DNA from: Alkalilimnicola ehrlichii MLHE-1
GTDB lineage: Bacteria; Pseudomonadota; Gammaproteobacteria; Nitrococcales; Halorhodospiraceae
DNA length: 32,000 bases
Assembly (NCBI RefSeq): GCF_000014785.1
Contig: NC_008340.1
Coordinates: 3,240,001 to 3,272,000 of the forward strand
Reading direction: 5' to 3'
Shown here: piece by piece, positions 2,793 to 18,065 of the stretch
Numbering within the stretch: the first letter of the stretch is position 1
Layout of the letters: each line of letters begins with the position of its first letter
Program-made: the position numbers and the translations under genes
Notes under the pieces: model-generated
The model's database searches: none
What the model was told of the DNA's origin: nothing
The model's input: the letters and a program-made list of their open reading frames with translations, nothing else

Positions 2793-3410
2793 TCAGCGGT
2801 GCAGCCCGGTCATGTATTCGGTGACAGCTTCGATGTCCTCATCGCTCATGCGCGAGGCGATGTCCCGCATCATGCGGTTGGGATCGGAGTCACGCTCCTC
2901 ATCGCGGTACTCCCGCAGGGCCTTGCGCATATACTGGGCGTGCTGCCCGGCAACCCGGGGGTACTGGGCACCCTTTACGCCCTCACCCGCCGGCCCGTGG
3001 CAGGCCATGCAGGCGGCAACACCCTGTCCGGGAATGCCGGCGCGGTAGATCTCACGCCCGCGCTCGACCAGCTCCTCGTCTGCCTCGTGGAACACGGCCT
3101 CCTGGGCCTCGTAGTAGACCGCCAGATCACGGATGTCCTCGTCGGAGAGGCCCGCGGCCTGGGGGGTCATCAGCGGATCCTGACGATCACCGTCACGGAA
3201 CAGCTGCAGCTGGTAGACGATATAGTCGGCAGGCTGCCCGGCGAGCGACGGCCAAGCGGGGTTGTTGCTATTGCCTTGGGCGCCATGACAGGCGACACAG
3301 GTCGCCGCCTTGCGTTCGCCCGCCTCGATATCACCATCAACGGCAAGGGCAGGCAGGCTGACGCCAGCCAGGATGAGGCCGGCAGCGGCCGCAATAAACC
3401 GGTTATTCAT
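2793..3410 (-). CDS. di-heme cytochrome c4
   Basis: Two CxxCH motifs (CVACHG, CMACHG) lie in two repeated c-type domains. Signal peptide MNNRFIAAAAGLILAGVSLPALA starts at the internal ATG 3410, preceded by GAGG. Confidence 0.85.
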   Translation of the reverse strand: MNNRFIAAAAGLILAGVSLPALAVDGDIEAGERKAATCVACHGAQGNSNNPAWPSLAGQPADYIVYQLQLFRDGDRQDPLMTPQAAGLSDEDIRDLAVYYEAQEAVFHEADEELVERGREIYRAGIPGQGVAACMACHGPAGEGVKGAQYPRVAGQHAQYMRKALREYRDEERDSDPNRMMRDIASRMSDEDIEAVTEYMTGLHR

Positions 3411-6394: not shown

Positions 6395-7015
6395 ATGAAT
6401 CCGATCTATTTCCAGGCCCGCTTTCTCACCAGTGCGCCGGACCTGCGCCGCATGCCGCCCGACCAGGGCCGGGAGGTAGCCTTCGCCGGCCGCTCCAACG
6501 TGGGCAAGTCGAGCGCCATCAACACCCTGACCAATCAGAAGTCGCTTGCCCGTACCAGCAAGACCCCGGGCCGCACCCAGTTGATCAACGTCTTCCCGAT
6601 CACCGACGAGGCGGCGTTGGTGGACCTGCCCGGCTACGGCTACGCCAAGGTGCCCGCCGCCGTGCGCCGGCGTTGGGATCAGGTGCTGCCGGAGTATCTG
6701 GCCGGCCGCCGCGCCCTGCGCGGCGTGGTGCTGGTAATGGATCTGCGCCACCCGCTCACCGACTTCGACCGCCAGATGTTGGACTGGTGCGGCCATATCG
6801 GGGTGCCGCTGCACGTCCTGCTCACCAAGGCGGACAAATTCAAGGCCGGGGCGGCGCGCAACCGGGGGCAGAATGTGGGCCGGCAGCTACGCGCCGAGTG
6901 GCCCGGGGTGACCTGGCAGATCTTCTCGGCCAGCAAACGGATGGGCGTGGACGAGGCCCACGCGCGGCTGGATGAATGGCTGGGCCTGGGCCCCGCCGCG
7001 GGGGAGGGCCGCTGA
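6395..7015 (+). CDS. engB: ribosome biogenesis GTP-binding protein EngB/YihA
   Basis: G1 motif [22 protein letters not shown], and TKADK (G4). N-terminus [14 protein letters not shown] starts at the internal ATG 6395. Confidence 0.9.
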
Positions 7016-7035: not shown

Positions 7036-7692
7036 TCAGAATCGGTAACTGAGCGCCACCGAGATGACCGGATAGTACTTCAGGTCTTCCAGGTCGTCCT
7101 CGAGGCTCTCTTCCTCTCTGCGGACATCCTCGCGGAACTGTTCTTCCAACACCGGGTTGTTGGTGGTCCCGTCCAAGCGGACTCGCGGGGAGCCGGTGAA
7201 CAGGACGCCGATATCGGACGAGAAGGACAGCCGGCCGCCGGCCAGCGCATTGCCCCAACCGATACCCAGGTAGGGGGCAAACCTGCGCCAGTCCACCTCG
7301 GCATCCAGACGCGCATCGTAGACGCCCTCGCCGATCGGCAGCCCTTCCTCCTGGGCCGAGCCGCGGAACTCGTTGCCGTTGTAGAACCCGCCGGCGCTGA
7401 GCCGGAAACGCCCCCCGAAGGGGTACCAGTCCGCCAGCACCCCGGCGCTGCGCACCTTCAGGGTGCCGTCATATTCAATGTCGTCCTCTTCCACATCGGT
7501 ACTGTAGTCGAGCCCCGATACCGAGGCGCGCAGGTTGACCCGGTCACTCACCCCCAGGGTGCCCTCCAGACCCAACCCCGTGGTGCCGGCCTTTACGCCG
7601 ACGGCGAACGGGCCAGCCGCATGGCCGGTACCCGCGCTGAACAACAGGACCAGGGCGAGGGCAATGCCCCCGACGGCGCGGCGTTTTTTCAT
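7036..7692 (-). CDS. putative outer-membrane beta-barrel protein (family not recognised)
   Basis: Signal peptide MKKRRAVGGIALALVLLFSAGTGHA from the ATG at 7692, alternating beta-strand pattern, terminal ...ALSYRF aromatic residue typical of OMPs. An acidic segment (EEESLEDDLEDL) precedes the last strand. Confidence 0.6.
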   Translation of the reverse strand: MKKRRAVGGIALALVLLFSAGTGHAAGPFAVGVKAGTTGLGLEGTLGVSDRVNLRASVSGLDYSTDVEEDDIEYDGTLKVRSAGVLADWYPFGGRFRLSAGGFYNGNEFRGSAQEEGLPIGEGVYDARLDAEVDWRRFAPYLGIGWGNALAGGRLSFSSDIGVLFTGSPRVRLDGTTNNPVLEEQFREDVRREEESLEDDLEDLKYYPVISVALSYRF

Positions 7693-7782
7693 ATCGTCTC
7701 TTCCCGATAACGCGAAAGGTTTAATCTTTCGCATCATAAGCGGGTTCGCCATGCCCGATCCAGGGGTCAGCACGGCCGGGGG

Positions 7783-7831
7783 AAAACGCACAAAGAAAAG
7801 GACCCCGGTCCCTGGGGGGAGGGAACCGGGG
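7783..7831 (-). terminator. intrinsic terminator (minus strand)
   Basis: Minus-strand RNA is CCCCGGUUCCCU-CCCCCC-AGGGACCGGGG: an 11-bp stem with one bulge (7803-7813 / 7820-7831), followed by UCCUUUUCUUUGUGCGUUUU. Confidence 0.6.
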
Positions 7832-8548: not shown

Positions 8549-11287
8549 TCAATGGGCCCCCTCCCAGTCGTCGGCCACGCCCACATCGACCTCCAGCGGC
8601 ACGGCCAGTTCCCCGGCCGCCTGCATGCGCTCGCGCAGCCCCTCCGCCACCGCCGGCACGTCCGCTGCCGGCACCTCCAGCACCAGTTCGTCGTGGACCT
8701 GCATGACCATACGCGCCTTGGAATGCGCCTCCGTCAGCCAGGCGTCCACCGCCACCATGGCGCGCTTGATGAGATCGGCCGCGGTGCCCTGCATCGGCGC
8801 ATTGATGGCGGTGCGCTCGGCATACTCCCGGCGCTGGCGGTTGCGGGCATTGATCTCGGGCAGGTAGAGCCGGCGACCGAACAGCGTCTCCACGTAACCG
8901 CGTTCACGGGCCTCGGCACGGGTGCGGTCCATGTACTCTTTGACCCCGGGGTAGCGCTCAAAATAGCGGTCCACGTAGGCCTGGGCCTCGCCGCGCTCGA
9001 TGCCCAGCTGCCGGGCCAGGCCGTAGGCGGACATGCCGTAGATCAGACCAAAGTTGATGGCCTTGGCCGCCCGCCGCTGCTCGCCGCCCACCCGTTCGGG
9101 TGCGAGACCGAAGACCTCGGCGGCGGTGGCGCTGTGGATGTCCGCACCCTCGGCGAACGCTTGGCGCAGCCCCTCATCCCCCGACAGGTGGGCCATGATC
9201 CGCAGCTCCACCTGGGAGTAGTCCGCCGCCAGCAGCTTGCAGCCGGGCTCGGCGACGAAGGCCTTGCGGATGCGCCGGCCCTCGGCGGTACGCACCGGGA
9301 TGTTCTGCAGGTTGGGATCGGAGCTGGACAGCCGCCCGGTGGCGGCCACCGCCTGATGATAGCTGGTGTGCACCCGGCCGGTCTTCGGGTGGATCAGCCG
9401 CGGCAGCTTGTCGGTGTAGGTGGTCTTCAGCTTGGCCAGACTGCGGTAAGCCAGGATCAACCGCGGCAGCTCGTAACCGCGTGCCGCCAGCTCCTCGAGC
9501 ACCGACTCGGCGGTGGAGGGCGCCCCCTTGGGGGTCTTCTGCAGCACCGGCAGGCCCATGCGTTCGAACAGGATCTCCTGAATCTGCTTGGGGCTGGAGA
9601 GGTTGAAGGGTCCTTCCGCCTCCTCGTGGGCGCGTTGTTCCAACGCGGCCATGCCCTCGGCCAGTTCCGTACTCTGCTGCTCCAGCAGTGCTCGGTCCAC
9701 CTTCACCCCGTGACGCTCCATGCGCGAGAGCACCGGCAGCAACGGCATTTCGATAGCGTGGAACACCTGCACCAGCCGTCCCTCGGCCTCGAGCCTCGGA
9801 TAGAGCGTCTGGTGCAGACGCAGGGTGATATCGGCATCCTCCCCGGCATAGCGTGTGGCGGTCTCCACCGCCACCTGGGCGAAGGGGATCTGCTTGGCGC
9901 CCTTACCGCAGACATCCTCGTATTTCACGGTGGCACGGCCCAGGTACTTGAGGGCCAGGGAGTCCATATCGTGACGGCTGGCGGTGGAGTCCAGCACGTA
10001 GGACTCGAGCATGGTGTCGTAGGCCACACCCTCCAGGTGGATGTCGTAGCGGGCCAGCACGCTCATGTCGTACTTGAGGTTCTGCCCGACCTTGGCGCGG
10101 TCCGGGTCCTCGAGCAGCGGCTTGAGCGCGGCCAGCACCCGGTCGCGGTCGAGTTGCGTCGGGGTATCGGGGCCTTCATGGGCCAGCGGGACGTAGGCGG
10201 CCTCACCCGCCCCCACCGCCAGCGCCACCCCGACGATCTCGGCATCCATGTAGTTGAGGCTGCTGGTCTCCAGGTCGAAGGCGAACAGCTCGGCTGACTC
10301 CAGCCGGCGCAACCAGTCGTCGAAGGCATCCGCGTCGTCCACGGTGTGGTAGCGGGCGTCGTCACCCTCGCCGGCGCCACCGGCCGCGCCCGGCCCGGCC
10401 GGGGCCACCTCGCCGCCGCTGTCGCCGTCACCATTCAGCAGCTCGCGGAGCAGCCGGCGGAACTCATACCGCTGGTAGTACTCGCGCAGTCGCTCCACGT
10501 CCGATTCGCCGGGTTTCAGGTCCTCCGGGCGCTGGTCCAGGTCCAGGTCGCAGCGGATGGTGGCCAGGTCCTCGCTCAACGCCAGCTCGTCCAGGTGCGC
10601 GCGCAGGCTCTCCCCCACCTTGCCCTTGACCTCATCGGCGCGGGCCTTGAGGGCGTCCAGCGAGCCGAACTGATTGAGCCACTTGGCAGCGGTCTTGGGG
10701 CCGACGCGGGGGACACCGGGGATGTTGTCGGAGCTGTCCCCGACCAGGGCCAGGTAGTCGATGATCCGCTCCGGCGGCACGCCGAACTTCTCCTTCACCC
10801 CGGCCTCGTCCAGGCGGGTGTCGTTCATGGTATTGAGCAGGGTGACCTGCTCGTCCACCAGCTGGGCCATGTCCTTATCGCCGGTGGAGATGACCACCGG
10901 CTGACCGGCCTCAGCGGCCTGCCGGGCGAGGGTGCCGATGACGTCGTCGGCCTCCACGCCGGGCACCTCCAGCAGCGGCAGGCCCATGGCGCGGATAATG
11001 TCCTTCAGCGGCTGGATCTGGGCGCGCAACTCGTCCGGCATTGGCGGGCGGTGGGCCTTGTACTGATCGAACAGCTCGTCACGGAAGGTGCGCCCGGGGG
11101 CGTCGAAGACCACCGCGATCCGCTCCGGCCGGTAGTCGTCGAGCAGCTTGCGGACCATGTTGAGCACGCCGTACATGGCGCCGGTGGGTTCACCGTCTTT
11201 GTTGGTGAGCGGCGGCATGGCGTGGAAGGCCCGATAGAGGTAGCTGGAGCCGTCCACCAGAATCAGGGGCTTGCGGGCGTCAGACAT
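8549..11287 (-). CDS. polA: DNA polymerase I
   Basis: 912 aa from MSDARKPLILVDGSSYLYRAF (5' nuclease). Has the 3'-5' exo motif FDLETSSL and pol motifs DYSQVELR, RRAAKAINFGLIYG and QVHDELV. RBS AGGAGA lies 5 nt before the ATG at 11287. The 1266-aa track ORF is an upstream read-through artefact. Confidence 0.95.
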   Translation of the reverse strand: MSDARKPLILVDGSSYLYRAFHAMPPLTNKDGEPTGAMYGVLNMVRKLLDDYRPERIAVVFDAPGRTFRDELFDQYKAHRPPMPDELRAQIQPLKDIIRAMGLPLLEVPGVEADDVIGTLARQAAEAGQPVVISTGDKDMAQLVDEQVTLLNTMNDTRLDEAGVKEKFGVPPERIIDYLALVGDSSDNIPGVPRVGPKTAAKWLNQFGSLDALKARADEVKGKVGESLRAHLDELALSEDLATIRCDLDLDQRPEDLKPGESDVERLREYYQRYEFRRLLRELLNGDGDSGGEVAPAGPGAAGGAGEGDDARYHTVDDADAFDDWLRRLESAELFAFDLETSSLNYMDAEIVGVALAVGAGEAAYVPLAHEGPDTPTQLDRDRVLAALKPLLEDPDRAKVGQNLKYDMSVLARYDIHLEGVAYDTMLESYVLDSTASRHDMDSLALKYLGRATVKYEDVCGKGAKQIPFAQVAVETATRYAGEDADITLRLHQTLYPRLEAEGRLVQVFHAIEMPLLPVLSRMERHGVKVDRALLEQQSTELAEGMAALEQRAHEEAEGPFNLSSPKQIQEILFERMGLPVLQKTPKGAPSTAESVLEELAARGYELPRLILAYRSLAKLKTTYTDKLPRLIHPKTGRVHTSYHQAVAATGRLSSSDPNLQNIPVRTAEGRRIRKAFVAEPGCKLLAADYSQVELRIMAHLSGDEGLRQAFAEGADIHSATAAEVFGLAPERVGGEQRRAAKAINFGLIYGMSAYGLARQLGIERGEAQAYVDRYFERYPGVKEYMDRTRAEARERGYVETLFGRRLYLPEINARNRQRREYAERTAINAPMQGTAADLIKRAMVAVDAWLTEAHSKARMVMQVHDELVLEVPAADVPAVAEGLRERMQAAGELAVPLEVDVGVADDWEGAH

Positions 11288-11321
11288 TAAGGTCTCCTGG
11301 CGAGTCAATCGGCACATTTCC

Positions 11322-11430
11322 GGGTCAGCGGGGTGTGGACGCGGGGGTGGGTGTTCCCGGGGGCCTTCGAGCGCGCACCCCTTCGGGGTGCCCGGGAACA
11401 CCCACCCCCGCGTCCACACCCCGCTGACCC
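11322..11430. repeat. 109-bp palindromic element: perfect 40-bp inverted arms and a 29-nt centre carrying the core GCGCACCCCTTCGGGGTGCCC
   Basis: Arms 11322-11361 and 11391-11430 are exact reverse complements, checked base by base. The core is at 11373-11393. Confidence 0.9.
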
Positions 11431-11539
11431 TGCCGTTGCCGGCAATGCTACCACCTCCCGGCCCGAATGGTGGCGGCATCCCACAGCGGGTCGCCACTGC
11501 GGTTATGATAGGGGGACACGCACCCGGCGCGGAGCAGCC

Positions 11540-12265
11540 ATGGACCAACACGAGCTCTTCGGTAACGGCAGCCTCAACCCGCTCAACGACTCCCTCATGA
11601 GCCGCGAGTCCTGGAAGATCTTCCAGATCATGGCGGAATTCGTCGAGGGCTTTGAGCGGCTGTCCCAGATCAAACCCTCGGTGAGCGTCTTCGGCTCCGC
11701 CCGTACGGCGCCGGATCACCCCTATTACAAGCTGGCCGAGGACCTCTCCCGGGCACTCTCCGACGCCGGCTTCTCGGTGGTCAGCGGTGGCGGGCCGGGC
11801 ATCATGGAGGCCGCCAACAAGGGCGCCCATGGGGGCAAGTCGCCCAGCATCGGGCTGAACATCCAGCTCCCCCACGAGCAGTCGGGCAACCCCTACCAGG
11901 ACATCAGCCTCAACTTCCGGCACTTCTTCAGCCGCAAGGTGATGTTCGTCAAGTACGCCTCCGCCTACGTGGTCCTGCCCGGCGGATTCGGCACCCTGGA
12001 CGAACTGGCCGAGATCCTCACCCTGGTGCAGACGGGGAAGACACGCCGCATCCCTATCATTCTGGTGTACAAACCCTACTGGCAGGGCCTGGTGGACTGG
12101 TTCCGCGACACCCTGGTGGCCGAGGGCGCCATCAACGCCGAGGACATGGACCTCTTCCAGGTGCTCGACGAGCCCACTGAGGTGGTGGACGCCATCTTCG
12201 CCCACTATGAGGACCGCGGTTTCGAACCCTCCCGCCGGGAGCGCGAGATGCTGCTGGACCTCTGA
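11540..12265 (+). CDS. LOG-family / TIGR00730 Rossmann-fold nucleotide-binding protein (nucleoside 5'-monophosphate phosphoribohydrolase-like)
   Basis: Motifs VSGGGPGIMEAANKGA and VVLPGGFGTLDELAEILTLVQT. ATG at 11540 (MDQHELFG); the track start at 11333 lies inside the palindrome. Confidence 0.8.
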   Translation: MDQHELFGNGSLNPLNDSLMSRESWKIFQIMAEFVEGFERLSQIKPSVSVFGSARTAPDHPYYKLAEDLSRALSDAGFSVVSGGGPGIMEAANKGAHGGKSPSIGLNIQLPHEQSGNPYQDISLNFRHFFSRKVMFVKYASAYVVLPGGFGTLDELAEILTLVQTGKTRRIPIILVYKPYWQGLVDWFRDTLVAEGAINAEDMDLFQVLDEPTEVVDAIFAHYEDRGFEPSRREREMLLDL

Positions 12266-12740: not shown

Positions 12741-14918
12741 TCAGCCCACCAGCCTGAGGTTGGCGTAGGCAGCCACCAGCCACTTGGCCCCCGCCCGCGC
12801 GAACTGCACCTGGATCCGCGCCGAGGGCCCCTGCCCCTCGAGCCGCAACACCACCCCCTCGCCGAAACGGTCGTGGCGGACCCGGCTGCCGAGGGTGATC
12901 CCATCCACCGGCTCCGACTGCATGGCCGCGGCGGTGGCGCCGGGACGGGTCACCTTCATCCGCGCCCGCACCTCCTCGATATAATCGGCCGGGATCTCCT
13001 GGATAAAGCGGGACGGCATGCCGTAGTTGTCCATCCCGTGCAGCCGCCGCTTTTCGGCGTAGGCCAGGTACAGGCGCTCGCGGGCACGGGTGATCCCCAC
13101 GTAGGCGAGCCGTCGCTCCTCCTCCATGCGCCCGGGCTCCTCGGTGGACATCCGGTGCGGGAACAGCCCCTCTTCCAGCCCGACCAGAAAGACCACCGGG
13201 AACTCCAGGCCCTTGGCCGAGTGCAGGGTCATCAACTGCACGCAGGGCTGCCCCTCCTCCCCCTGGGCCTCGCCCGCCTCCAGCGCCGCGTGGGTGAGAA
13301 AGGCGGTGAGGGGGGTCAGCCCCTCGTCGCGCTCGTATTGTTGCTCGAAGTTGCGCGCCGCGGTCACCAGTTCGTCCAGGTTCTCCCGCCGGGCCTCGCC
13401 GCGGTCACTGCCGTCCGCCTCGGCGTCCCTGCGCAGCCCGCTGGCAACAATCACCCGATCCATCTGCTCGTGCAACGGCAGAGTCGCCGTCTCCTCCTCC
13501 AGCCGGTCCAGCAGCTGCAGGAAGCCCTGCACCGCATTGCCGGCGCGGGCACTGATGCCACCGGCCCGGATGATCCGGACGGCCGATTCCCACAGGCTCG
13601 CGTCGGCCGCCCGGGCCCCCTCGCGGATCTGATCCAGCGTGCGGTTGCCAATGCCCCGCCGGGGGGTATTGATCACCCGCTCGAAGGCGGCGTCATCGTG
13701 GCGGTTCATCAGCAGGCGCAGATAGGCCAGGGCATCGCGAATCTCGGCCCGGTCGAAGAAGCGCTGGCCGCCGTACACCCGGTAGGGCAGGCCGCGGGCC
13801 AGGAGGCTCTCCTCGAAGGCGCGGGACTGGGCGTTGGAGCGGTAGAGGATGGCGAAATCGTCACGGGCATAGCCCTCATCGAGCAGGGCGGCGATGCGGT
13901 CGACCACGTAACGGGCCTCGTCGGTCTCGTTGAAGGCGGCGTAAAGCTGGATCGGGTCACCCCGGCTGCCCTCGGTCCATAGGTTCTTGCCCATGCGCCC
14001 GCCGTTATGGCTGATCAGCGCGTTGGCGGCGTTGAGGATGGTCTCCGTGGAGCGGTAGTTCTGCTCCAGCCGGGTGATGCTCACCTCGCCGAACTCGCGG
14101 GCGTAGCGGTGGATGTTTTCCACCCGGGCCCCGCGCCAACCGTAGATGGACTGATCGTCATCGCCGACCACGAAGACATCGCTGTCCTCCCCGGCCAACT
14201 GCTGCAGCCAACGGTACTGCAACTGGTTGGTGTCCTGGAACTCGTCCACCAGCAGATGGCGGAAGCGGGCGCGGTAGTGGGCCAGCAGGTCGGGCCGGTC
14301 GCGGAGCAGCTCGAAGCTGCGCAACAGCAGCTCCGCGAAGTCCACCAGGCCGGAGCGACGGCAGGTCTGCTCGTAGGTCTGGTAGACCTGCCAGACGGCA
14401 AAGCGGAACGGTTCCCCGGCGTCCGCCTGGATGTCGGCGGGCCGCAGCCCCTCCTCCTTCCAGCCATTGAGCACGCCGCGCACCTGCCGGGGCGGATAGC
14501 GCTTCTCGTCGAGCTCCATGCCGCGCATCACCCGCTTGATCAGCCGGAGCTGGTCGTCGCTGTCGAGGATCTGGAAGGTCTCCGGTAGCCCGGCATCCGC
14601 TGCGTGCATGCGCAGCAGCCGGTGCGACAGGCCGTGGAAGGTGCCCACCCACATGCCGGCGGTGCGGATGCCGAGCAGCTCACCGATGCGGTGGCGCATC
14701 TCGGCGGCGGCCTTGTTGGTGAAGGTCACCGCCATGATGCCGAAGGGGGAGGCGCCCTCCACCCGCACCAGCCACGCCGCCCGGCGGGTGAGCACCCGGG
14801 TCTTGCCGCTGCCCGCACCGGCCAGCACCAGGGAACGGCCGAGCGCGGCGCAGACCGCCTCGCGCTGGGCGTCGTTGAGATCGGCTATCAGGTCGGAGAC
14901 GTCGGCTTCGGCTTCCAT
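12741..14918 (-). CDS. uvrD: DNA helicase II UvrD
   Basis: 725 aa from MEAEADVSDLIADLNDAQREAV. Walker A GAGSGKT, DEFQDTN, and a C-terminus GSRVRHDRFGEGVVL...KWLVAAYANL matching the E. coli UvrD tail. The 813-aa track ORF reads upstream through the palindrome. Confidence 0.92.
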   Translation of the reverse strand: MEAEADVSDLIADLNDAQREAVCAALGRSLVLAGAGSGKTRVLTRRAAWLVRVEGASPFGIMAVTFTNKAAAEMRHRIGELLGIRTAGMWVGTFHGLSHRLLRMHAADAGLPETFQILDSDDQLRLIKRVMRGMELDEKRYPPRQVRGVLNGWKEEGLRPADIQADAGEPFRFAVWQVYQTYEQTCRRSGLVDFAELLLRSFELLRDRPDLLAHYRARFRHLLVDEFQDTNQLQYRWLQQLAGEDSDVFVVGDDDQSIYGWRGARVENIHRYAREFGEVSITRLEQNYRSTETILNAANALISHNGGRMGKNLWTEGSRGDPIQLYAAFNETDEARYVVDRIAALLDEGYARDDFAILYRSNAQSRAFEESLLARGLPYRVYGGQRFFDRAEIRDALAYLRLLMNRHDDAAFERVINTPRRGIGNRTLDQIREGARAADASLWESAVRIIRAGGISARAGNAVQGFLQLLDRLEEETATLPLHEQMDRVIVASGLRRDAEADGSDRGEARRENLDELVTAARNFEQQYERDEGLTPLTAFLTHAALEAGEAQGEEGQPCVQLMTLHSAKGLEFPVVFLVGLEEGLFPHRMSTEEPGRMEEERRLAYVGITRARERLYLAYAEKRRLHGMDNYGMPSRFIQEIPADYIEEVRARMKVTRPGATAAAMQSEPVDGITLGSRVRHDRFGEGVVLRLEGQGPSARIQVQFARAGAKWLVAAYANLRLVG

Positions 14919-14959
14919 GGTTTCGGTCCGGTACAGAGGGTATAGAGTCGGCGGATGGG

Positions 14960-15176
14960 GGCGTTGCGGTGGGTCGGTGCCGGGGGGCGTGGTCCCGTCG
15001 GGCCTCCGATGGCGCACCCCTTCGGGGTGCCCTGCGCTACTCGGGAAAAATCGGCGCGCGTGAACTCGCTTCGCTCGAACAAGCACGCGCTTCATCCGAT
15101 TTTTCCCTGCGTTGCTCGGTGCGCCAAAGTCGGCCCGACGGGACCACGCCCCCCGGCACCGACCCACCGCAACGCC
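14960..15176. repeat. 217-bp compound palindromic element: perfect 45-bp inverted arms, the same 21-nt core, and nested inner inverted repeats
   Basis: Arms 14960-15004 and 15132-15176 are exact reverse complements, checked base by base. Core at 15012-15032. Inner IR GGGAAAAATCGG (15043-15054) / CCGATTTTTCCC (15096-15107). Innermost pair GCGCGTG (15056-15062) / CACGCGC (15084-15090). Confidence 0.9.
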
Positions 15177-15199
15177 GCTCACGGGCGATCAGGGGCCTG

Positions 15200-16141
15200 C
15201 TAACCGGCGGCCGCAGGCTCGATGGGGCGGGCCTGCTCCTGCACCACCCGGAGGTCACGGATGGCCGCCGCCACTGCCTCCAGGGTGCTGGCGCGGGCGG
15301 CCCCCTTGCGCCAGTAAAGCCCGATGGTACGGGTAGGGACCGGCGGGGAAAAGGGCAGCAGCTTGACCGCCGACTGGTTGGGGATCTCGCAACCGGCCTG
15401 TCCGGCCAGACGCGGGAGCAGGGTCATTCCCACGCCGGCCGCCACCATCTGGCGCAGGGTCTCCAGGCTGGTGGCCCGGAAACAGCTGGTGCCGCCGGCA
15501 TCGCCGGCCAACTGGCAGACCTCCAACGCCTGATCGCGCAGGCAGTGCCCCTCCTCCAGCAGCAGCAGCTCATCCTCCGGCAGGGCCTCCGGACGCGGTG
15601 CACGCTTCGCCTCGGCCAGGGCATGATCGGCAGGCAGGGCCAGCACGAAGGGCTCTTCGAAGACCGCCACCGAGGCCAGGTCATCGCCCGCCACCGGCAT
15701 GGCCATCAGCGCCCCGTCCAGCTCCCCCTTGCGCAGCCGCTCCACCAGCAGGGCGGTGCGCTCCTCGTAGAGCAGCATGCGCAAGCGCGGCCAGGCCTCA
15801 GTGGCGGTGGCCACCAAGTGGGGCAACAGATAGGGGGCGAGGGTGGGGATGGCCCCGAGGCGCAGCTCCCCGGTCATGGGCTCGGCGGCCGCCCGACAGA
15901 GTTCGACGATGTCGTCCACTTGGTTGAGGACCGCCCGGGCCCGTGCCACCACCTCCTCGCCGGTGGGGGTGAGCAGGACCTGGCGGGTACCGCGCTCCAC
16001 CAATTGCACCCCCAGGTACTCCTCCAGCTTCTTGACCTGGGCGCTGAGGGTGGGCTGGCTGACAAAACAGGCCTTGGCGGCGCGGCCAAAGTGGCGCTGG
16101 TCGCCCACGGCGACCAGATAACGCAAGTCCCTGAGGTTCAA
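15200..16141 (-). CDS. oxyR: LysR-family hydrogen peroxide sensor OxyR
   Basis: MNLRDLRYLVAV...FVSQPTLSAQVKKLE aligns with E. coli OxyR from residue 1. Redox cysteine context EEGHCLRDQAL plus a second Cys, and FRATSLETLRQMVAAGVG. The start codon is TTG at 16141-16139. Confidence 0.85.
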   Translation of the reverse strand: MNLRDLRYLVAVGDQRHFGRAAKACFVSQPTLSAQVKKLEEYLGVQLVERGTRQVLLTPTGEEVVARARAVLNQVDDIVELCRAAAEPMTGELRLGAIPTLAPYLLPHLVATATEAWPRLRMLLYEERTALLVERLRKGELDGALMAMPVAGDDLASVAVFEEPFVLALPADHALAEAKRAPRPEALPEDELLLLEEGHCLRDQALEVCQLAGDAGGTSCFRATSLETLRQMVAAGVGMTLLPRLAGQAGCEIPNQSAVKLLPFSPPVPTRTIGLYWRKGAARASTLEAVAAAIRDLRVVQEQARPIEPAAAG

Positions 16142-18029: not shown

Positions 18030-18065
18030 GGAACCGGCGCCCGGAGCGCTCCGGGCGCCGGTTCC
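18030..18065 (-). terminator. perfect 16-bp hairpin downstream of the usp gene (no U-tract)
   Basis: GGAACCGGCGCCCGGA-GCGC-TCCGGGCGCCGGTTCC, 25 nt after the usp TGA (18091) and 54 nt before the glmS ATG. Confidence 0.4.

Follow-up and report, generated by a model that had tools for sequence, protein, structure and literature searches.

What is a 109-bp perfect palindrome doing immediately in front of polA, and how did it come to be there? The question is raised by a stretch of 32,000 nucleotides (nt) from Alkalilimnicola ehrlichii MLHE-1 (NC_008340.1, positions 3,240,001 to 3,272,000; this whole stretch is called the window, and coordinates refer to it unless another sequence is named), in which an inverted repeat, designated E1, lies between polA and a LOG-family gene. 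An original prediction, made from the letters of the window, had described exact 40/40 reverse-complement arms around a 29-nt spacer, and an inverted-repeat search recovered this geometry: a left arm at 11322–11361 and a right arm at 11391–11430, each of 40 nt, 100% complementary and 29 nt apart. With up to three mismatches allowed, these were the only two arm sites in the window, against none expected from 100 shuffles. The GC hairpin GCACCCC-TTC-GGGGTGC that had been placed in the centre was located at 11375–11391. As an RNA, the region folds at −125.6 kcal/mol (z = −12.9), and as DNA at −68.7 kcal/mol (z = −13.6). We conclude that E1 is very probably an internal-deletion derivative of an approximately 215-bp hairpin-forming intergenic repeat element. 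The view of the palindrome as a unique, purpose-built structure gives way to this reading, since the structure derives from a 215-bp repeat by a 106-bp internal deletion and an intact copy lies 3.6 kb away.

The evidence for this conclusion comes from a second A. ehrlichii strain (CP184336, strain 2), whose coding DNA differs from that of the window by 1.8–3.9%. Its polA–LOG site holds a full-length 215-bp element, with arms at 6677–6734 and 6834–6891 of that sequence; its core runs on the other strand. The core-flipped spacer of strain 2 and the window spacer align with one gap of 106 nt, GGGGTG/CCCTGCG...GCAAGGCGGC/CCCGGGAAC (slashes mark the gap ends), with CCC/GCCC microhomology at its ends; in E1 the corresponding deletion junction, GGGGTG/CCCGGG, falls at 11390–11391. 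Outside the gap, E1 and the flipped strain-2 element are identical except at one mirrored pair of arm positions, with T>C in the left arm and A>G in the right, so the left arm of E1 equals the left arm of CP184336 at the same site apart from this change. It is the single gap in an otherwise identical element that identifies E1 as an internal-deletion derivative. Because the stump in E1 and the core in the sister strain point in opposite directions, the comparison shows that the segment between the E1 arms has been inverted in one of the two lineages. As these alignments read, E1 is apparently a recently truncated and inverted member of a repeat family.

What the deletion removed can be stated precisely by comparison with E2, a full-length family member in the same window (14960–15176, plus strand, 217 bp), which is also present in strain 2. 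The E1 spacer (11362–11390, plus strand) is a remnant of the family core: it aligns with E2 at 14999–15027 and, as far as the deletion junction, matches the flipped strain-2 element at every base. Within it lie GGCC, which is the inner end of the stem, TTCGAG, which is the 5′ strand of the internal loop, the 5′ half of a helix called P2 (CGCGCACC) and the side hairpin. This side hairpin, Pa (11375–11391, plus strand), is an exact copy of the E2 hairpin at 15014–15030, and its stem is invariant in 10 of 10 aligned full-length copies. Both arms, the loop's 5′ strand, Pa and the first (5′) half of P2 thus survive in E1, whereas the other (3′) half of P2, the apex and a rod of further helices are gone. 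The inverted repeat itself is also present in two independent read sets (SRR32708590 and SRR32701048), in which k = 31 assemblies break exactly k−1 = 30 nt into each arm; since these breaks recur in independent data, the E1 inverted repeat is no artefact of one assembly, although the contigs end within the arms, 30 nt in, short of the palindrome centre.

The more distant history of the locus was read from Alkalispirillum mobile, which is 94% identical to the window organism in UvrD and 97% in RuvB. The A. mobile region is fully syntenic and lacks long palindromes. Its polA–LOG spacer measures 146 nt against 252 nt in the window, and its lysR–uvrD spacer 71–89 nt against 281 nt; at both sites, the A. 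mobile flanks align as far as the arm ends. The insertion point of E1 lies approximately 27 nt upstream of the ancestral polA ATG, between the ribosome-binding site (RBS) and a conserved block. The filled and empty sites together show that the insertion of the element into the polA–LOG spacer postdates the divergence from A. mobile. The more distant relatives examined hold neither E1 nor E2. Alignment of the filled sites with the A. mobile empty sites revealed no target-site duplication at the E1 or E2 junctions, and domain scans of 29 window open reading frames (ORFs) and six flanking ORFs of the fetched loci revealed no transposase or recombinase, in agreement with the original prediction on both points. 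That prediction had also pointed to presence or absence of the palindrome in relatives. The A. mobile site is empty, while the sister strain carries a full-length element with the opposite core orientation instead of a simple presence or absence; with a different form in one relative and none in the other, the 109-bp structure as such is not conserved. We also considered that the arms might have been copied from local target DNA and found no support for this: the E2 arm matched the A. mobile empty-site spacer no better than did shuffles or the arms of unrelated copies (p = 0.24), and the E1 arm gave p = 0.56.

E2 defines the full-length form of the family. Its arms (14960–15018 and 15118–15176) are 59 nt long, 93% complementary and 99 nt apart in the window-wide inverted-repeat scan, and its core spans approximately 15012–15124. 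It lies between a lysR-type gene and uvrD, 41 nt upstream of the uvrD ATG (14918) and 23 nt past the lysR stop codon. E1 and E2 share a 33-nt block, GGGCCTyCGAnnGCGCACCCCTTCGGGGTGCCC. A 21-mer of the core, GCGCACCCCTTCGGGGTGCCC, was found at six loci in 596 Gb of species-representative genomes, four in one Ectothiorhodospiraceae metagenome-assembled genome (MAG), one in a related MAG and one in a Blastocatellia MAG, and at two loci in a metagenome collection, both of them family members from soda-lake samples. Five of the six representative-genome loci are family members. The Blastocatellia locus (L001) was rejected as a member, as it holds the 21-mer hairpin alone and all other motifs are missing. 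The 21-mer occurs only one to four times in each genome matched.

A covariance model of the core, built from eight copies, recovered 12 full-length copies at 140–166 bits (E2 at 148.6 bits) and scored E1 at 20 bits. Weak matches of this model in contigs L014, L015, L016 and L040 lie inside coding sequence and were discarded. Full-length relatives of E2 occur in the same species (one copy, upstream of ruvB), in the second A. ehrlichii strain (two copies), in soda-lake metagenomes (two) and in a pair of Ectothiorhodospiraceae MAGs (six). Of these, the second copy on one MAG contig, the ruvB copy and both strain-2 copies were found through the model. The ruvB copy, E3 (contig L037 of A. ehrlichii CP183314, 3749–3969), precedes ruvB by 33 nt, with dinB just beyond, and is orthologous to copies on the soda-lake contigs L007 and L008. 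Because it is shared with these A. mobile-like populations, the ruvB copy is apparently older than the polA and uvrD copies. At least three loci are occupied in A. ehrlichii and at least five in one MAG, and the DNA reached holds two to five copies per genome. On one MAG contig (L006), two full-length copies at 737–884 and 2970–3117 stand 2.2 kb apart in the same orientation with only the inner 12 arm nt in common, a clustering that resembles that of E1 and E2 in the window.

No Rfam family matched at its gathering score over the whole window, and none at E ≤ 10 over the full-length copy (14900–15250). Plasmid and phage collections gave no blastn match to the family, and 16 pattern matches in IMG/VR were chance matches within coding DNA or lacked every other motif; with no plasmid or phage match and no genuine IMG/VR member, an origin from either was rejected. 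Our literature search found no description of these sequences or of palindromic repeats in Alkalilimnicola. As far as could be found, the family is small, undescribed and restricted to Alkalilimnicola, Alkalispirillum and another Ectothiorhodospiraceae lineage.

The elements range from 109 to 235 bp and carry no conserved ORF. In the full-length plan, an asymmetric conserved core of 113–116 nt stands between copy-specific arms of 35–59 bp with perfect Watson-Crick pairing. Inward of the arms comes a conserved asymmetric internal loop, TCCGAT/AAAGTC in the Alkalilimnicola type and a 3-nt AAA bulge on the 3′ strand in the MAG type, followed by the 8-bp helix P2 (GGCGCACC/GGTGCGCC). The full-length element also has the side hairpin Pa, GCACCCC-TTC-GGGGTGC; inside Pa lies an imperfect helix formed by two copies of CTGYGCTRCTCG. 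A helix P3 covaries between subfamilies, GGAAAAATCGG/CCGATTTTTCC in one and CCCGAAAGGGGG/CCCCCTTTCGGG in the other, and an invariant apex, GAACTCGCTTCGCTCGRACA, closes the rod of further helices. On ten copies, 97% of cells are paired under this structure, compared with 34–54% in slid controls, and eight pairs have changed on both sides, a covariation to which only two subfamilies contribute, so that few independent events are involved. A core-encoded peptide was rejected because there is no start codon and no conserved frame, and because the compensatory changes argue for structure.

A resemblance of GGTGCGCNNAA to a XerC arm was judged to be chance. The 3′ half of P2 (GGTGCGCCAAA at 15118–15128, GGTGCGCAAAA in L037), which reads GGTGCGC[CA]AAA, resembles the XerC-binding arm of dif, GGTGCGCATAA, and is followed by a mismatched 6-nt loop; a XerD-like arm is missing after it, and the MAG subfamily does not fit. 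Elsewhere in the window, at 7410–7426 on the minus strand, GTACCCCTTCGGGGGGC differs from the Pa hairpin by two mismatches; this is probably a chance occurrence, inside an ORF of 251 aa (7036–7791) that has no Pfam match.

The arms and the core evolve in opposite manners. In ten full-length copies, 466 of 469 arm pairs are Watson-Crick, three are mismatched and none is G-T, and the arms of different copies complement one another at a mean of only 0.43. Paralogues have only the inner 10–12 bp of the arms in common, and five of seven outer-arm pairs tested within a lineage are not significantly similar (E1 versus E2, p = 0.37; E1 versus E3, p = 0.28). Orthologous copies reveal how this state is reached. 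E3 and its L007 orthologue differ by 8% in the core and by approximately 25–30% in the arms, with fourfold degenerate sites 23–34% and flanks approximately 23% diverged; the orthologues L003 and L004 differ at 5 of 116 core positions and at approximately 30% of arm positions. Since both arm sets are perfect in each comparison, every arm change must have been mirrored. The arms therefore appear to change at about the neutral rate, with each change reproduced on the other side; arm hypermutation was rejected, as the fourfold sites and flanks are as diverged as the arms. A further palindrome in the window behaves in the same way: a perfect 36-bp palindrome without spacer (18030–18065, GGAACCGGCGCCCGGAGC/GCTCCGGGCGCCGGTTCC), unrelated in sequence to the family, lies in the gap from the usp stop to the glmS start. 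In the second strain it has 14-bp arms with two mirrored and two single changes, and at the same site in A. mobile there is only a short imperfect hairpin.

The neutral rate, the strict Watson-Crick pairing and the same behaviour of an unrelated palindrome argue for correction of one arm from the other at the level of DNA, and the lack of any G-T among 469 arm pairs favours such maintenance over selection on an RNA helix. The arms would stay perfect if each templated the correction of the other, by hairpin-templated strand switching or by gene conversion during replication. In Escherichia coli, template switching in quasipalindrome mutagenesis removes the imperfections of inverted repeats by rewriting one arm from the sequence of the other (PMC7202029). 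The cores follow a different course. Paralogous cores within a genome differ at zero or one of 113 positions, while between the two strains the orthologous E2 cores have diverged at four of 113, and three of those four sites (CAT versus TTC) are common to the paralogues of each genome. That paralogues within a genome share this block indicates gene conversion between copies, which would homogenise cores at loci approximately 86 genes apart by accession numbering. The cores may accordingly be kept alike by purifying selection together with inter-copy gene conversion.

The history of E1 fits into this framework. The window strain has lost a 106-bp block between CCC microhomologies, and with it most of the core, leaving an arm, a 29-nt stump and an arm. 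Because the conserved core has gone, E1 is probably without whatever function the family has, and what is left in the polA 5′ leader region may be a passive hairpin of great stability or a sequence prone to cruciforms.

The position of E1 relative to its neighbours bears on whether it also acts on them. Both genes were confirmed by their Pfam domains: polA (8549–11287, minus strand; ATG 11287–11285; AGGAGA RBS 11298–11293) carries DNA_pol_A, 5_3_exonuc_N and DNA_pol_A_exo1, and the LOG/TIGR00730 family gene (11540–12265, plus strand) carries Lysine_decarbox/LDcluster4 and encodes a protein 100% identical to that of A. ehrlichii MLHE-1. The gap between the left foot of E1 and the polA ATG contains the RBS and, as had been claimed, little room beyond it; it measures 34 nt, not the 35 nt given. 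Upstream of E1, a block at 11442–11456 (minus strand), GCAATGCTACCACCT, which reads TGGTAGCAT on the polA strand, is identical to A. mobile at 15 of 15 positions in an otherwise diverged spacer and is a candidate extended −10. A second block conserved in A. mobile (11480–11525) contains TATGAT at 11504–11509, a possible −10 for the LOG gene. The insertion lies between the RBS and the candidate −10, so a polA mRNA from this ancestral control region would begin approximately 8 nt ahead of the hairpin, which would then form part of its leader. The A. mobile empty site lends support to the earlier geometric argument that the polA leader must cross the hairpin, which is a deduction from spacing and not transcript mapping.

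For the polA-sense leader, the predicted fold has −123 kcal/mol (z = −12.3) and does not pair the RBS, and a perfect 40-bp RNA helix is predicted on both strands; RNase III substrates require approximately 20 bp or more of uninterrupted double-stranded RNA. A consensus scan of 11200–11600 found no two-hexamer promoter and no terminators, and the E2 region (14850–15260) likewise gave no sigma-70 consensus on either strand and no terminators. No T tract follows the arms of E1 or E2, and E1 does not conform to the definition of a rho-independent terminator. LexA boxes and sigma-32 or sigma-54 motifs were sought by eye near the repair genes, and none was convincing. At each of the three known A. 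ehrlichii loci, the element precedes a start codon, that of polA, uvrD or ruvB, by 33–41 nt, a link with repair genes that comprises three cases and was spotted after the fact. The MAG copies adjoin adk/ppa, queF/smc, tsaD/plsY, an Nramp gene and moaD.

Four points weigh against the reading of E1 as a recently truncated, inverted member of a spreading family with mutually corrected arms. The truncated state is known from the window sequence alone, and loss of the centre in clone-based sequencing is possible, though E2 is intact there; the family has spread without duplication or conserved outer termini, and with no transposase or recombinase in the window or fetched loci; uncompensated arm changes exist, four in L008 and one in the strain-2 E2, so that correction is not instantaneous; and templated arm correction is deduced from the substitution pattern alone. 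The first point can be pressed into the proposal that the 109-bp form is an artefact and that the genome truly holds the 215-bp element, the centre having dropped out during cloning in E. coli or been collapsed by the assembler. E. coli clone libraries do not maintain long palindromes stably, the full form stands in the sister strain, and the short-read contigs, ending inside the arms, leave the centre unconfirmed. We nevertheless hold this to be very improbable: E2, with 59-nt arms and a 99-nt spacer, came through intact in the same window, and a simple collapse would not yield a clean deletion with junction microhomology and an inverted orientation. A role in gene expression deserves more weight but is still unlikely, namely that E1 is a functional cis-regulatory hairpin of polA: the mRNA would start inside or beyond the palindrome, and its 40-bp leader duplex, through RNase III cleavage or by protecting the 5′ end, would set mRNA stability or translation. 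The 34-nt stretch that contains only the RBS, the placement of E1 between the RBS and the possible extended −10 block, the very stable polA-sense fold that leaves the RBS free and the recurrence at 33–41 nt before polA, uvrD and ruvB are all compatible with it, and there is a precedent in Neisseria, where Correia/NEMIS repeat hairpins in mRNAs are cleaved by RNase III. Yet A. mobile manages without an element at either polA or uvrD, the sister strain has the 215-bp form, the arms contain no G-U pairs, unlike selected RNA helices, and the scans found no promoter or terminator consensus.

The conserved core invites two further explanations. If the family were a gene for a structured non-coding RNA, or an RNA motif, and E1 its pseudogene, this would account for the covarying core helices (GGAAAAATCGG/CCGATTTTTCC exchanged for CCCGAAAGGGGG/CCCCCTTTCGGG, eight pairs changed on both sides), for apex and internal loops conserved in sequence and for conserved G-U pairs of the core on one strand. 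We consider it improbable, since Rfam gave no match even at E ≤ 10 and no promoter or terminator signal was found, a perfect duplex of 45–59 bp is an RNase III target rather than a stable RNA, none of 469 arm pairs is G-U, the covariation comes from two subfamilies only, and the strand is ambiguous, the opposite strand folding 3–11 kcal/mol better in most copies. Slightly less probable still is an invertible, inverton-like DNA switch, or a folded-DNA recombination site, in which the long inverted arms would let the asymmetric core flip and either the core orientation or cruciform extrusion would act on the adjacent gene, with E1 as a switch locked by its deletion. The core orientation at polA–LOG does differ between strains only 2–4% apart, the core is under purifying selection at orthologous sites, the three A. 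ehrlichii loci share their position before polA, uvrD and ruvB, and the asymmetric loop, bulged AAA and conserved 8-bp helix recall attC or CTX attP, by resemblance only. However, inversion is seen in one of four orthologous comparisons, the orientation of E2, E3/L007 and L003/L004 being unchanged, and ordinary recombination between perfect inverted repeats of 40–59 bp suffices to produce it; no core promoter was found on either strand and no recombinase nearby, the MAG copies adjoin unrelated housekeeping genes (adk, ppa, queF, smc, tsaD, plsY, moaD), and the repair-gene link is a post hoc observation with n = 3. The interpretation that we favour therefore remains that E1 is the deletion derivative of an intergenic palindromic repeat, and the interpretation given in the original prediction is partly supported.

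This result is meaningful in several respects. The palindrome before polA is explained as a decayed repeat element and not as a dedicated operator or terminator: E1 is ordinary in kind, an intergenic palindromic repeat, and unusual in design and evolutionary behaviour. The family reverses the usual logic of bacterial palindromic repeats, in that the core is conserved and the arms are free. Its orthologous, paralogous, empty-site, deleted and inverted states together document, with unusual clarity, the persistence of long perfect palindromes in nature. If the core does something for the host, its conserved presence in front of three repair genes would make it a new device for regulation or structure; if it does not, the family would be a mobile or duplicative element that needs no conserved ends and leaves no duplication, the mechanism itself being unexplained. 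The boldest version, a new class of host-used chromosomal hairpin or cruciform with a conserved asymmetric core that gene conversion keeps uniform between loci, arms defined by complementarity only and invertibility, exerting structure-sensing or orientation-dependent control of polA, uvrD and ruvB, with E1 recently disabled, is a long shot in our estimation.

The window genes place the stretch in the atp-glmSU-parAB-mnmG region (parAB, gidB and mnmG being assigned by position and ORF length, not by domain scan), which, by established gene order, we take to flank the replication origin in many gammaproteobacteria. The 251-aa gene at 7036–7791 was tried as a rearrangement marker and dropped, as it is unrelated to the 251–254-aa genes between polA and LOG in distant relatives. 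Logan k = 31 contigs (L010, L018, L019, L038 and L042) stop exactly 30 nt inside the arms of E1, E2, E3 and the 36-bp palindrome, so that such contig ends mark long inverted repeats. Contig L011 (run SRR9436229) begins 3 nt inside the right foot of E1, equivalent to window position 11428, and not 30 nt in; this may reflect a coverage drop or an RNA end, and the start is not taken as an RNA 5′ end.

Among the closest known systems are the Correia/NEMIS repeats of Neisseria and the ERIC repeats of enterobacteria. These too are small (100–160 bp), non-coding, intergenic and palindromic, often lie between promoter and start codon, where they are co-transcribed with their neighbours, and form long hairpins that can be processed by RNase III (Correia) or RNase E (ERIC); in them, as in the present family, full-length and internally deleted forms coexist. 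The family has no sequence similarity to either. The terminal inverted repeats of Correia and ERIC are conserved and the interior is variable, whereas the present family has a conserved core and locus-specific arms. Correia elements generate a TA duplication and occur in hundreds of copies, compared with no duplication and the two to five copies per genome seen here. REP and REPIN sequences, which go with RAYT transposases, are likewise extragenic hairpin palindromes that form populations within a genome, a REPIN being an inverted pair that makes one long hairpin. REPs, however, are 20–40 nt long, conserved in sequence, marked by a 5′ GTAG-type motif and present in tens to hundreds of copies, none of which applies to the family.

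Miniature transposable elements with inverted repeats (MITEs) share several of its outward features: they are small, non-coding, hairpin-capable, present in several copies per genome and polymorphic for presence or absence at syntenic sites of close relatives, all of which is true of the family. It departs from them in lacking conserved terminal inverted repeats and, at the E1 and E2 junctions, target-site duplications; no parent insertion sequence or transposase was identified in the ORFs scanned, and its core appears to be under in-situ purifying selection and homogenised by gene conversion. With invertons, the family shares a segment found in both orientations, at one locus (polA–LOG) in two genomes and not within a single population; E2 yielded no sigma-70 consensus, no recombinase was found in the window, and no invertase or integrase gene lies near the elements. 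The conserved asymmetric loop and the bulged bases beside a short conserved helix are reminiscent of attC and of CTX attP. The family nonetheless has no R- or L-box consensus and no cassette array, and it lies between housekeeping genes and not at dif; it does not qualify as an integron attC or Xer-type recombination site. The behaviour of the arms is matched by quasipalindrome template switching, which predicts the mirrored changes seen in E1, in E3 and L007, in L003 and L004 and in the palindrome at 18030–18065. Known from reporter hotspots, this form of correction would here act as the long-term keeper of natural arms of 35–59 bp.

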